Of a stretch of 64,000 nt of DNA, positions 6,017 through 9,572 are shown in pieces. Under the pieces are notes generated by a model. That model was not told the origin of the DNA, searched no databases, and saw only the letters and a list, made by a program, of their open reading frames with translations. Source of the stretch: Chloroflexota bacterium (GTDB lineage: Bacteria; Chloroflexota; Dehalococcoidia; Lucifugimonadales; JADFKI01). The position numbers and the translations under genes are program-made. Positions within the stretch are counted from its first letter, which is position 1. Every line of letters starts with the position of its first letter. Location of the stretch: the NCBI GenBank assembly GCA_027623195.1, contig JAQBUT010000002.1, forward strand, positions 96,001-160,000, written 5' to 3'.

Positions 6017-6313
6017 TTACTTCTTAGTGACCAAGTGCCGGAGAATATCTTCGGACGTGGTCAAATTTCGGTTCAACTCCAAAACGTCCTTGGCGTCTAG
6101 CGAGAAGTGCGCCAGCACGTAAATGCCTTCTAGGAACTTATTGATCGGGTAGGCCATGCGGCGTAGGCCCCAGATATCGTGGTCCGCCAAGGTGCCGCCG
6201 TGTTCCGATATGTAACCGGAAACGCGCTCCATGATTGCTGCCACTTCTTCCTCGTTGGCCTGAGGCGTGAGGATCAGCACTATTTCGTAATCTCGCAAAC
6301 GTTGAGCTACCAA
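6017..6313 (-). CDS. rpsF: 30S ribosomal protein S6
   Basis: RDYEIVLIL, WGLRRMAYPI and ILRHLV motifs. Confidence 0.96.
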   Translation of the reverse strand: MVAQRLRDYEIVLILTPQANEEEVAAIMERVSGYISEHGGTLADHDIWGLRRMAYPINKFLEGIYVLAHFSLDAKDVLELNRNLTTSEDILRHLVTKK

Positions 6314-6428
6314 AGTCGACTCCCAATTCTTTTAAAGCCAATAGCAATAGCCGCTCCACACGTGGCTATCCGAAGAGTATACGTCAGGAACGGCAGTTAG
6401 TACTAATGCTGCCAAATTTACCCAGAAA

Positions 6429-6458
6429 ATTATATCACGCTCGTTTGCATCTCTACAA
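6429..6458 (-). promoter_or_regulatory. Sigma70-type promoter for the rpsF operon
   Basis: TTGTAG-N18-TATAAT with extended -10 (TGn). Confidence 0.55.
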
Positions 6459-6758
6459 TGAAATCGGGCCGCTCGTTTTCGATTCATGCCTTTTTAAATT
6501 GGCGGCGCCGTGAATCGAAGGGGCAACGGCCCGTACATTTGCTGCGCAATCGACCGGGGGGGCCTTAGGGCATTGCACAGTTCATGGTGATGGTTCATAA
6601 AATAAGGGCAGGTCGATTTGGGGAAAAAGGAAGAGAAGCCATTCCCAAATTGTTGATACACGGGTATTTCCCCTATTTCCCCAAGGGTAGCGTCCCGATA
6701 GGGCTTCTAAGTAAACCCAATTCATGTCATTAGGTGGTTACTTTACCCCCAAGGCTGT

Positions 6759-6788
6759 TTGACAGAATGCGGGTCGGCCAACTAGTAT
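6759..6788 (+). promoter_or_regulatory. Sigma70-type promoter upstream of the panD-like/methyltransferase operon
   Basis: TTGACA-N18-TAGTAT. Confidence 0.5.
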
Positions 6789-6877
6789 GGAGAAAATTCG
6801 GTTGGCCCGTAAAGGCCGAACCAATTGTTTGCGAAACTTACGTTATGCCGATTGGGATACATATGAATAGAGATAAG

Positions 6878-6921
6878 ATTTCCTGAATGGCGGCTCGCAT
6901 GGGCACCGCCATTCAGGAAAT
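6878..6921. repeat. Perfect 16-bp inverted repeat in the putative leader
   Basis: ATTTCCTGAATGGCGG-N12-CCGCCATTCAGGAAAT. Confidence 0.85.
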
Positions 6922-7137
6922 AACTTCACATTGCGCCCGCAACCGCCCCCTTCCCTGCGAGCCCTAACCTACTTCACTGCACTTACCGGACTGCTGGGCG
7001 TTACCCCGCCTGCGCACTAGACTATGTCTTTCTCCTTTTAAATCTGGCGTTATTTGCTGTGAAAAGCGTGCGCCTTCGTCGGTATATTCGTCTTCAATCC
7101 ATATCAACAAATCGAGCAAAAATTAATTGGGAGAATC

Positions 7138-7515
7138 ATGATGCGAACAGTTCTACGATCTAAGATTCATCGAGCCTTCGTTACGCACTGCAACGAGGAC
7201 TACATTGGTAGCATCCTCATCGATAAGGACCTGATGGAGAGGGTAAACCTTTGGGAGTATGAAAAGGTTCTGATATGCGATGTAACCAATGGCAACAGGT
7301 TCGAGACCTATGCCATTCCAGGTGAAGCCGGCTCTGGAGTCGTATCCGTGCAAGGTGCGGCTGCCAAGCTGGTAGACCAAGGCGATTGCATCATCATTAT
7401 GTCATTTGACCTTACCGACGAGCCCATTGAGCCGCAGATGATACTGGTAAACGAGCAGAACGAGTTCGTCGAATATCTCGGAGAGGCGCACTATGCTAAG
7501 CAAAAGGTTCACTGA
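7138..7515 (+). CDS. panD: Pyruvoyl-dependent aspartate 1-decarboxylase family protein
   Basis: K9, H11, Y22, G24-S25 self-cleavage site, R54, T57 and Y58 at E. coli PanD numbering; N72 is Q. Confidence 0.85.
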   Translation: MMRTVLRSKIHRAFVTHCNEDYIGSILIDKDLMERVNLWEYEKVLICDVTNGNRFETYAIPGEAGSGVVSVQGAAAKLVDQGDCIIIMSFDLTDEPIEPQMILVNEQNEFVEYLGEAHYAKQKVH

Positions 7516-8314
7516 GCAAGACACCGAAAGTTACTACGACAGCCAGGACTCGATCTACAGCTCCTTTTGGGACCCTGACGGTAGCGTACATTGGGGTTAT
7601 TTCGGCGAGTCCACTGGGCACGACTTTCTAAAGGCGTGCGCCAATTTGGATTCACTTATGTCGCGCTTGGGACAGATTGGTCCTGACTCAAAAGTCTTGG
7701 ACCTTGGCTGCGGCAACGGGACCACAGCACTGAGTCTGCATGAGGCTTTCAAATGCGAGGTTGTTGGAGTTGACCTCAGTGGCGTTCGTATCGACAACGC
7801 CCGGAAAGCCCTGTTAGAGCAGTCGCCCGAAGTACAAGCGCGTGTATCGTTCGAGAAGGCCTCCGCCATTGACCTCCCCTTCGAGGATGGCGCTTTCACT
7901 CACGTGTGGAGCCAGGCGGTACTCTACCATGTTCACGATCAGGAAACGGCCCTGAAAGAGGCGTACCGCGTGCTCAAACAAGGCGGTACCCTGATTTTTG
8001 ATGATCTACTCAAGCCAAAGCCTGACGTAAGCGAACTGGCCAAAAAGCATGTCTATGAGCGGCTTTATTTCGACACTGAGTATAGCTTCGAGACATACCA
8101 GAGAGCTCTGGAGCGTGTTGGCTTCACCATCTCGGAGGCTCGGGACCTGTCAGAACACTTGAAGATGAGCTACTGGTGCCTCTCCATCATGACCCATAGT
8201 CGGGGGGGCGAGCACGCTGACCATTATGAGGAGCTGTCGCACTCTTACGAGCAGACCGCCCAGGCAGTGGTGAATAGAGAGCTTGGCTGGGGACTGTTCC
8301 TCTGCCAAAAGTGA
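7493..8314 (+). CDS. Class I SAM methyltransferase (sarcosine/dimethylglycine MT-like or DsyG-like)
   Basis: YYD...FWD...VHWGYF, VLDLGCGNG, LPFEDGAFTHVWSQ, RVLKQGG and terminal LGWGLF. Overlaps panD by 23 nt. Confidence 0.85.
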   Translation: MLSKRFTEQDTESYYDSQDSIYSSFWDPDGSVHWGYFGESTGHDFLKACANLDSLMSRLGQIGPDSKVLDLGCGNGTTALSLHEAFKCEVVGVDLSGVRIDNARKALLEQSPEVQARVSFEKASAIDLPFEDGAFTHVWSQAVLYHVHDQETALKEAYRVLKQGGTLIFDDLLKPKPDVSELAKKHVYERLYFDTEYSFETYQRALERVGFTISEARDLSEHLKMSYWCLSIMTHSRGGEHADHYEELSHSYEQTAQAVVNRELGWGLFLCQK

Positions 8315-8336
8315 TCAATCCGCGGGAGACCAGAGC

Positions 8337-8969
8337 ATGACGCAAGAAGATAACCTGGTCCAATGGGTCTACGCCTCCAAGAACGAGGACGAGTTGGAGG
8401 AGCGGTATGACCATTGGGCAAAAACATATGACGAAGACTTGAACCGAGACTTTGGCTGGTACGGCCCGATCCGAGCAGTAGAGTCGATGGGCAAATACGT
8501 CTCTAAGGACGCTCGGATTCTGGACGCAGGCGCAGGCACGGGCCTGGTAGGAAAACTGCTGGCAGACGCTGGTTACACCAACCTCGTAGCAATGGACCTA
8601 TCTCAGGGAATGCTGGATGAGGCCCGTAACAAGGGCGTGTACCAGGAGTTCCATCAGATGACCATGGGTGAAACCCTGGACTTTCCTACGAACTCCTTTG
8701 ATGCTGTTGTTACAGTTGGTGTATTGACTGTAGGCCACGCCCCGGTCAAATCGCTTGACGAACTGGTCCGGGTAACTAGGCCAGGCGGATATATTGTGTA
8801 CACGTTGAGGCCGGACCTCCTGGAGGATGGCGGCTTCAAGGAAAAGCACGCCGAGCTAGAAGCAGCCGGCAAGTGGAAGTTGACTGAAATGGGAGAGCCC
8901 ACCAAGATTCTCCCCAAGGGTGAACCGGACGTCTTCCATCAAGTGTGGGTCTTCGAAGTGCTGGCGTAG
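8337..8969 (+). CDS. Class I SAM methyltransferase (METTL27/WBSCR27-like)
   Basis: YDHWAKTYDEDL, ILDAGAGTGLVG, DLSQGML and GHAP...ELVRVTRPGG. Start moved to ATG 8337 (GGAG RBS). Confidence 0.85.
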   Translation: MTQEDNLVQWVYASKNEDELEERYDHWAKTYDEDLNRDFGWYGPIRAVESMGKYVSKDARILDAGAGTGLVGKLLADAGYTNLVAMDLSQGMLDEARNKGVYQEFHQMTMGETLDFPTNSFDAVVTVGVLTVGHAPVKSLDELVRVTRPGGYIVYTLRPDLLEDGGFKEKHAELEAAGKWKLTEMGEPTKILPKGEPDVFHQVWVFEVLA

Positions 8970-9083
8970 CGGGGCTTCCCGCTGCCGAACGTCTAGTATC
9001 GCCGCATCGCAATCGACTCACACAAATCTGACTGATTAGGGTATCCTTAGCTCCGAGATATCACAGTAATCAGGAGAAACCTC

Positions 9084-9572
9084 ATGCCCGATTTGACACC
9101 TATGGCCGCATCCGTTGGCGAGAAACTTAAGCAGAGTGGCCAGAATTTGGCCGTCTCCGAGTCCTCGTGTGGAGGGTTGCTTTCTGCCTGCCTCGTATCG
9201 GTCCCGGGGGCGTCAGCTTACTACGTAGGTGGTTCTGTGGTTTACACCAGGGTCGCCCAGAAGGGTCTGCTAGATGTGCCCGACAGCGCTATGGAGGGCA
9301 TGCGCGCCAGCACCGAAGCCTACGCTCTCATGAACGCCCGTGCCTTACGGGAGCGTCTTGGCACCACCTGGGCTCTTAGCGAAACAGGCGCCAGTGGTCC
9401 GACGGGAAACCGCTATGGCGACGATGCAGGCCATGCCTGTATCGCAGTCGCCGGTCCCATTGAGCGGGCCATAACCGTAGAGACTGGCAATTCTGATCGC
9501 GAGGCCAATATGTGGGCCTTCGCCAAGGCAGCCTTTGATCTGCTGGAAGAGTGTGTTTCGGAGGCTGGCTAG
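9084..9572 (+). CDS. CinA C-terminal / PncC-like NMN amidohydrolase family protein
   Basis: LAVSESSCGG, PGASAYYVGG and SETGASGP motifs. Confidence 0.85.
   Translation: MPDLTPMAASVGEKLKQSGQNLAVSESSCGGLLSACLVSVPGASAYYVGGSVVYTRVAQKGLLDVPDSAMEGMRASTEAYALMNARALRERLGTTWALSETGASGPTGNRYGDDAGHACIAVAGPIERAITVETGNSDREANMWAFAKAAFDLLEECVSEAG

Follow-up and report, generated by a model that had tools for sequence, protein, structure and literature searches.

Three co-directional genes in a 64,000-nt stretch of DNA from a Chloroflexota bacterium (the whole stretch is hereafter the window) encode a PanD-like pyruvoyl-dependent decarboxylase and two class I S-adenosylmethionine (SAM) methyltransferases, which we refer to as MT1 and MT2. 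The genes are as tightly packed as the initial annotation of this DNA had described, with panD and MT1 overlapping by 23 nt and a gap of 22 nt separating MT1 from MT2, and a GGAG-like sequence lies 5′ of each of the three start codons. An in-frame TTG at 8283 offers an alternative start for MT2, which would lengthen the protein to 228 aa. Upstream of panD lies a conserved open reading frame (ORF), an element absent from the initial annotation. The best-supported reading, reached by sequence comparison, is that the locus would convert the product of PanD into a methylated solute, with beta-alanine betaine as the most probable one. Throughout, the labels G, L and P denote genomes, loci and proteins of the comparison sets, and statements that cite a paper refer to the excerpted text of that paper.

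Table 1. Features of the operon and its upstream region (window positions)
Feature	Positions	Strand	Remark
Sigma70-like promoter match (10/12 consensus positions)	6759..6788	+	Candidate promoter of leader and operon
Perfect 16-bp hairpin over the leader ORF's start codon	6878..6921	+	
26-codon upstream ORF with LPCEP-stop end; candidate ribosome-arrest leader peptide	6887..6967	+	Motif conservation
PanD-like pyruvoyl-dependent aspartate 1-decarboxylase family protein, Q72 clade, 125 aa	7138..7515	+	
MT1, class I SAM methyltransferase, 273 aa; its family has no name and counts SDMT, RebM/MitM and PEAMT among its relatives	7493..8314	+	
MT2, METTL27/WBSCR27-like class I SAM methyltransferase, 210 aa from ATG 8337	8337..8969	+	

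The first gene product is, as had been proposed, a protein of the pyruvoyl decarboxylase type with an intact G24-S25 site. It scores 127.7 bits against TIGR00223 (cut-off 106) and 138.9 bits against PF02261, the only Pfam family assigned to it. The residues K9, H11, Y22, G24, S25, R54, T57, Y58, G73, A74, A75 and I86 are kept, and with them every position in a published list of strictly conserved PanD residues; N72 is absent from that list as excerpted (PMC3314653). In PanD, an imine forms between the pyruvoyl group and the alpha-amino group that the substrate carries, R54 binds the beta-carboxylate, and N72 is dispensable for activation (PMC3975893). Two earlier remarks on these positions hold: the active-site N72 is replaced by Q72, and R54 is retained, which keeps an aspartate route open.

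Neither linkage nor co-occurrence with panB and panC ties this gene to pantothenate synthesis. The window contains no panB or panC, as noted initially; both lie together on contig C11, away from the contig of the window. Of a possible separate panBCD elsewhere, panB and panC are thus present, and a search of this genome, which is 87% complete, turned up no PF02261 gene besides that of the window. A census of 61 genomes, this one among them and the majority from its family and order, found panC in 54, panD in seven and MT1 in nine, with 47 of the 54 panC-bearing relatives giving no panD match. The panD gene adjoins MT1 in four of the seven genomes that have it; G045 carries a panD-panB-panC row, G044 panD alone, and G001 a partial panD at a contig end together with MT1-MT2 lacking panD. 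Across a class-wide sample, PF02261 was present in 216 (the unpublished G688 among them) and MT1 in two of 301 genomes. In a PanD tree of 60 rows, the methyltransferase-linked, Dehalococcoidia-type proteins form a group of 25, all with Q72 (support 90/93), set apart from 31 N72 proteins (support 94/84), 30 of which are encoded beside panB or panC; because 30 of these 31 were the best Pfam scorers among the 216, the N72 sample is biased toward canonical sequences. PanDs of the Q72 clade never lay beside panB or panC in the loci read. Given the many panC-bearing relatives without panD and the separate Q72 clade, the window PanD is probably accessory rather than needed for pantothenate. The initial annotation had allowed that it might be the sole housekeeping PanD; it is the only panD found in the genome, and its relatives argue against a pantothenate need.

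MT1 had been described as resembling sarcosine/dimethylglycine methyltransferase (SDMT), a likeness that holds in fold and motifs, yet the protein falls far under the family cut-off (NF041675, 99.9 bits against 550). A structure model (pLDDT 88.8) gave its highest TM-score among the matches listed to the Galdieria SDMT (2o57, 0.84), and values of 0.77–0.82 to AtmM, MitM, RebM and SpnF; given these similar values the SDMT fold is present but unspecific and does not by itself decide the substrate. Two features are common to MT1 and three SDMT-like proteins: at the N-terminus the pattern YD...IY...W...HxG, and a [YF][DE]R motif, the arginine of which is R190 in MT1, invariant in 19 of 19 sequences and missing from a DsyG-type domain. 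The ESM Atlas returned only generic names for MT1. The assignment of MT2 as METTL27-like was borne out, its best solved structure being 7qcb (E 2.9e-22; next match E 6.9e-11), and it also shows weak BioC-like matches. A second MT2-like gene with 53% identity occurs in an unrelated context (G000:C41:53692-54330).

The linkage of the three genes recurs across genomes, in metagenomes and as gene fusions; the initial annotation had named a lack of such conservation among the grounds for refuting its idea. A genome scan covering 5 of 64 parts listed 79 loci, 59 of which (L044-L102) encode generic methyltransferases and did not enter the linkage count; the other 20 encode MT1-family proteins (identity of at least 45%). 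Among the matches listed, panD adjoins MT1 in 19 of these 20 loci and MT2 is nearby in 17, and the flanking genes differ. A metagenome pattern search returned 69 loci, 68 of which encode MT1 (two on one contig); within 5 kb, on contigs that are often short, panD was found in 51 and MT2 in 36 of the 68. Where 1.5 kb was available on both sides, panD was present in 19 of 22 loci and lacking in three. Four full-length PanD-MT1 fusions (P0050, P0054, P0133, P0134) and MT1-MT2 fusions (P0121-P0125, P0139-P0143, L042) were found, together with a 790-aa MT1-MT2-TauD/GBBH-like fusion (P0151) and P0184, in which PanD precedes a pair of domains whose end-to-end alignment with a GSMT/SDMT-like fusion spans 531 columns (25% identity, E 3e-37). 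Such recurrence in genomes and as fusions argues that the panD-methyltransferase linkage is not due to chance. An earlier genome contig scan with MT1 alone yielded 214 stretches and no confirmed locus, viral contigs gave no match to the MT1 pattern, and in a cyanobacterial class sample MT1 matched in one of 400 other genomes, a hit that we take to be a tocopherol methyltransferase.

The module also occurs in Cyanobacteriota, in one Hyphomicrobiaceae bin and on archaeal-looking contigs. Among its PanDs no fewer than three types can be told apart, namely Q72, a cyanobacterial type with N-G-G-G at positions 72–75, and ordinary N72 (L137, L192, P0184), and the PanDs are scattered over several places in the tree. 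Six AT-rich loci (L144, L149, L154, L173, L181, L182) pair a Q72-type panD with MT1 and have no MT2; their neighbors RadB and CDC48 suggest that they are archaeal. With MT2 absent there and replaced by a GSMT-like domain in P0184, we regard MT1 as the core of the module. Leader-MT1(-MT2) copies without panD (L007-L014; G015, G016, G020, G021, G039) often lie beside transposase-like ORFs, and these neighbors, along with the several copies per genome, suggest a mobile cassette. An ATP-grasp-like gene recurs near panD-MT1 (L033:7509-8612, L040:2214-3218, L142, L153, L158, L176, L185), and at L040 a glycosyltransferase family 20 gene of the trehalose-phosphate synthase type adjoins MT1. In L140, L160, L164 and L190, MT1 occurs without panD and is divergent from a gene for an EctB-type diaminobutyrate aminotransferase.

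The upstream ORF, the stop codon of which lies 170 nt upstream of panD, is conserved at its end. Of 48 upstream regions, 26 have a P-[CT]-[EDN]-[PH]-stop ending, whereas shuffles gave 0.04. The motif codons show synonymous third-position changes at L, P, C, E and P, and both TAA and TAG serve as stops; the synonymous changes point to conservation at the level of the peptide, so that the C-terminus is conserved in frame with the stop, as looked for in an arrest leader. The motif was defined from the same 48 upstream regions, and an order-level genome search provides the independent check: 43 matches to the leader pattern occurred in 35 of 261 genomes, against six for a reversed control. All 30 matches fetched from these 43 head methyltransferase operons (18 panD-MT1, three MT1 alone and nine with a PF00891-type methyltransferase). 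C exceeds G in the 60 nt after the leader stop in 25 of 26 cases (mean 21 C, 12 G), and rho is present in the genome, over its cut-off. The fold of the 286-nt leader RNA was no better than that of shuffles (z −0.81), the Rfam scan of 6200-9200 gave no match, and no terminator-like site was found in 6300-9100. The hairpin over the leader start has no counterpart in the 47 other upstream regions. A promoter search gave three matches against 2.2 expected in shuffles, so that the match in Table 1 is by itself no better than chance.

TnaC ends in proline followed by a stop codon. Both it and SpeFL, the leader of the ornithine decarboxylase gene speF, stall ribosomes in a ligand-dependent manner that blocks Rho (bioRxiv 10.1101/604074), and the present leader is predicted to be a switch of this type: a ribosome halted at the Pro-stop would mask a putative Rho site rich in C and thereby control attenuation of the operon. 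Since the common factor of the leader operons is a SAM methyltransferase, SAM status or a methylated (betaine) product are the likeliest candidates for the ligand. Metabolite-sensing arrest peptides are few, and this leader is a conserved candidate tied to methyltransferase operons.

The leader operons with a PF00891-type methyltransferase include one in G054 (L235:2647-7662) in which the leader and this gene are accompanied by a phosphoenolpyruvate (PEP) mutase over its cut-off, phosphonopyruvate-decarboxylase-like subunits, a gene resembling 2-aminoethylphosphonate (AEP) transaminase (330 against 361 bits) and a further methyltransferase. A similar row headed by the PF00891-type gene, with PEP mutase, phosphonopyruvate-decarboxylase-like, AEP-transaminase-like and methyltransferase genes, occurs at L242:2496-8598 (G034), and at L025:9650-12105 both modules share one row, a frameshifted remnant of the PF00891-type module following panD-MT1-MT2. 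We consider the PF00891-type row a candidate N-methyl-aminoethylphosphonate operon; by analogy, the G054 operon would follow the same logic as the panD operon, an X-CH2-CH2-NH2 compound being made and then methylated.

Starting from the observed gene order and families, the intact PanD catalytic set, the conserved linkage with its fusions and the conserved leader end, we propose, with confidence a little better than even, that the operon makes beta-alanine betaine and that the upstream mini-gene acts as a ribosome-stalling switch. Decarboxylation of aspartate by the PanD-family enzyme would supply beta-alanine, to which MT1 and MT2 would add three N-methyl groups with SAM, giving beta-alanine betaine as a protective solute (osmolyte). 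Aspartate is the presumed substrate because R54 is kept and ordinary N72-type PanDs have been recruited to MT1; should ordinary PanDs be able to serve, the shared intermediate would most simply be beta-alanine. N-methylation is suggested by the SDMT-like fold and motifs of MT1 and by the GSMT-like domain that stands in for MT2 in one fusion. As MT1 can occur with panD alone, MT2 would catalyze an early methylation step and MT1 the later ones. Some neighbors of the module elsewhere are related to enzymes of trimethylammonium compounds: within 5 kb of MT1 in the 68 metagenome loci, GBBH/TmpA-like dioxygenases occur in 12, and a choline/carnitine acyltransferase in one, besides DsyD-like genes in five. 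Ocean communities make beta-alanine betaine in situ by SAM-dependent methylation (PMC9321204); our literature search, with thin coverage of subscription journals, showed no microbial gene set for it among the papers listed, one of which concerns engineered Pseudomonas (PMC9699165), and no paper on the present module; the synthesis enzyme that it did bring up is from plants.

Several observations weigh against this proposal. MT1 stands well below the SDMT cut-off, and its best E-values are to the natural-product O/N-methyltransferases AtmM, MitM and RebM (also TleD and SpnF by model); the carboxylate-binding role of R190 is one that we infer. METTL27 itself is described as having no known substrate, with nucleic acid favored and a small molecule allowed (PMC9240639). 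The changes near the active site (Q72 and the cyanobacterial N-G-G-G) may reflect another substrate. MT1 lies behind the leader without panD in G001, G015, G016, G020 and G021, and beside an EctB-type aminotransferase gene in four of the 68 metagenome loci. In favor of repeated recruitment, a single clade of methyltransferase-linked PanDs was rejected by an approximately unbiased (AU) test (p-AU 0.034), but the group tested was named after seeing a tree, and long branches are involved. As for the switch, the stretch before the leader stop is C-rich too (22 C and 14 G per 60 nt), and the start and length of the leader vary (11–57 codons).

That the module applies the same chemistry to a different acidic amino acid strikes us as unlikely, if deserving of real weight. 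Cysteate or cysteine sulfinate would lead to N-methyl-taurines or N-methyl-hypotaurines, phosphonoalanine to N-methyl-2-aminoethylphosphonates, and glutamate to gamma-aminobutyrate (GABA), gamma-butyrobetaine and then carnitine where a GBBH-like gene follows; R54 would demand only an anionic side chain, and Q72 and N-G-G-G could reshape the pocket. Several neighboring dioxygenases score best on TmpA (242–245 bits against 223–230 for gamma-butyrobetaine dioxygenase), although all remain under the TmpA (400) and GBBH (414.75) cut-offs. The dioxygenase of L166 has an HD protein as its neighbor, an arrangement like that of TmpAB, in which trimethyl-AEP is hydroxylated by TmpA and glycine betaine is set free by TmpB (PMC10574752), L145 has an added choline/carnitine acyltransferase, and the leader also heads the AEP-type operon, with both modules in one row at L025. 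As to phosphonate synthesis, however, the PEP mutase match is below cut-off in this genome and in four of five cyanobacteria with the cluster, none lies within 5 kb of MT1 in the 68 metagenome loci, and the recruitment of ordinary N72-type PanDs to MT1-like genes also speaks for aspartate. Literature searches on homoserine betaine and on GABA-to-carnitine conversion returned nothing usable. Less probable still is another derivative of beta-alanine or a related amine (partially N-methylated, or a carboxyl methyl ester made by MT2) that would serve as a building block or signal and not as a bulk osmolyte. The weak BioC-like matches of MT2, the resemblance of MT1 to natural-product methyltransferases and the asparagine-synthetase, PhyH and further dioxygenase genes of cyanobacterial clusters would fit such a product, but no tailoring, ligase or export gene is conserved with the Dehalococcoidia operon, the flanks of which differ across the 20 loci among the matches listed, and the PanD-GSMT-like-MT1-like fusion points to stepwise N-methylation. 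We give hardly any credence to a housekeeping PanD for pantothenate that merely shares a transcript with unrelated methyltransferases. The gene passes the TIGR00223 equivalog cut-off, was found without a PF02261 companion in the genome and coexists with a panB and panC that have no adjoining panD, and some of its beta-alanine may incidentally reach PanC; against this stand the panD-less panC relatives, the separate, all-N72 clade of panBC-linked PanDs, the fusions, the recurrence of the module in other lineages and the two panD genes of G063.

4-Dimethylsulfonio-2-hydroxybutyrate (DMSHB) is a 2-hydroxy acid with no alpha-amino group; PanD needs such a group, so DMSHB cannot be its substrate. 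This bears on the split DsyD/DsyG route to dimethylsulfoniopropionate (DMSP) offered in the initial annotation, in which MT1 would S-methylate 4-methylthio-2-hydroxybutyrate (MTHB) to DMSHB like DsyG and the PanD-like protein would complete DMSP, and which we hold to be very improbable. Its premise, that DsyGD joins an MTHB methyltransferase to an aspartate-decarboxylase-family domain, was mistaken: DsyD belongs to PF04115 and is ureidoglycolate-lyase-like, and the only fusion of a methyltransferase with pfam02261 in the excerpted text, OSX77567.1 of Porphyra umbilicalis, neither methylated MTHB nor decarboxylated DMSHB (PMC11306096). MT1 and DsyG do share the broad SDMT-like superfamily, cyanobacterial MT1-MT2/panD clusters carry a stand-alone PF04115 protein with 36% identity over 187 aa to the DsyGD-type C-terminal domain, and the PF00891 methyltransferase headed by this kind of leader finds its best PDB match in DsyB (105 bits). 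Our DsyG comparison comprised one sequence, L223:601-2070 (G844; 490 aa), which pairs an SDMT-like domain at the N-terminus with a PF04115 domain at the C-terminus, as in the DsyGD architecture. To this reference MT1 shows 29% identity over 148 aa and 22% over 266 columns, below the approximately 38–40% over at least 70% of the length required for a DsyG (DsyG homologues span 38–50%; PMC11306096). In a quick tree of 49 rows, L223, on a long branch, grouped with SDMT-like proteins (96), and the MT1 group was separate (95). The protein set also holds an algal sister group (P0191, P0210, P0216, P0219, P0222, P0247, P0262). PF04115 had no match in this 87%-complete genome, and no protein recognizable as DsyGD was found among the best 150 representatives, 34 of which were Pfam-scanned with five families shown each. 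On the strength of the PF02261 rather than PF04115 assignment, the pyruvoyl imine chemistry (PMC3975893), the distance between MT1 and DsyG and the lack of PF04115 in the genome, we rejected the DMSP reading; the case cautions against taking such panD-methyltransferase genes for DMSP synthesis.

Returning to beta-alanine betaine, extended clusters accompany the module in other organisms. Filamentous cyanobacteria (L042:8001-16073; L156, L180, L207-L218, L224, L225) combine the MT1-MT2 fusion and panD with a stand-alone PF04115 gene and GBBH-like dioxygenases, and sometimes with asparagine synthetase and PhyH. The stand-alone PF04115 protein has 36% identity to the DsyD-type domain, and a PF04115 gene at E < 1e-90 occurs in 13 of 401 genomes; the excerpted text of PMC11306096 reports that no single-domain DsyD was found. 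We speculate that in these clusters the GBBH-like and DsyD-like genes serve to hydroxylate the product to a 2-hydroxy betaine and to decarboxylate this oxidatively, with glycine betaine as the outcome. L145:468-6415 arranges panD, a choline/carnitine O-acyltransferase (PF00755, 441 bits), MT1-MT2, a GBBH-like gene and a major facilitator superfamily transporter, and an exported O-acyl hydroxy-betaine is a possible product. By tblastn, this genome gave no match to a GBBH-like dioxygenase, carnitine acyltransferase, HD, PhyH or DsyD-like protein, and it holds only one short PF06155 protein. Downstream of the operon and on the same strand is a CinA C-terminal-like gene (9084-9572), an arrangement seen here and in G001 only. 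Close MT1 homologues carry SAR202 or Chloroflexi labels in their source databases, and the loci with a name belong to Dehalococcoidia, which makes a SAR202-type host likely for this aquatic bacterium. Between 83 and 85% of sampled words were present in four sequencing runs of one estuary study, two further runs may be where this DNA comes from, and no RNA runs were listed among the runs containing the sequence.

A joint reading of these strands is possible, though we think it less likely than not. It would see in the module the microbial beta-alanine betaine gene set, which came together on several occasions, with PanDs of different kinds, in Chloroflexi of the SAR202 type, in marine cyanobacteria and in small archaea. 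The Dehalococcoidia switch would be a new LPCEP-stop arrest peptide heading only SAM-methyltransferase operons, one of them for N-methyl-aminoethylphosphonates; the cyanobacterial GBBH-like hydroxylase and stand-alone DsyD-like protein would lead through 2-hydroxy-beta-alanine betaine to glycine betaine; and with MT2 the METTL27 family would gain its first member acting on a small molecule. The present analysis adds the DsyG comparison, the panC/panD census, the repeated recruitment of PanD and the set of operons behind the leader. The three-gene set makes a microbial beta-alanine betaine route directly testable in E. coli and, if the reading is true, provides a marker gene for that route in abundant SAR202-type bacteria and marine cyanobacteria; MT2 is in addition a substrate lead for METTL27 (PMC9240639).

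Compared with known systems, the window protein resembles housekeeping PanD (TIGR00223, PF02261) in passing the family cut-off and in its catalytic and substrate-binding residues, and its clade differs by N72Q in 25 of 25 rows, by having no panB/panC adjacency and by its separate place in the tree. Like DsyGD, DsyG and DSYE (PMC11306096), the operon links an SDMT-like-superfamily methyltransferase with a decarboxylating function, yet its decarboxylase is PF02261, MT1 has 22–29% identity and the genome gave no PF04115 match; a stand-alone DsyD-family (PF04115) gene is held by its cyanobacterial relatives. The leader is likened to SpeFL and TnaC by layout, not by sequence: a short ORF before an amino-acid decarboxylase gene and a conserved C-terminus are common to them, and a C-rich stretch after the stop, with rho in the genome, may be a further likeness, whereas the present leader varies in length and start and heads SAM-methyltransferase operons with or without a decarboxylase. 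With glycine betaine synthesis by GSMT and SDMT (NF051855, NF041675; 2o57) the operon shares a pair of class I SAM methyltransferases, side by side or as a fusion, and MT1 shares the SDMT fold and its N-terminal and [YF][DE]R motifs; MT1 differs in its score and in its own tree group, MT2 is METTL27-like and not GSMT-like, and a decarboxylase here would supply the amine. Plant beta-alanine N-methyltransferase belongs to the plant O-methyltransferase family. The enzyme of Limonium latifolium (EC 2.1.1.49; PMC6657504) has the product proposed here and performs three SAM-dependent N-methylations. Plants, for which no confirmed PanD is reported in the excerpted text (PMC6657504), make beta-alanine betaine with that one trifunctional enzyme (PMC6657504, PMC13577585), whereas the operon described here would divide the methylations between two methyltransferases.

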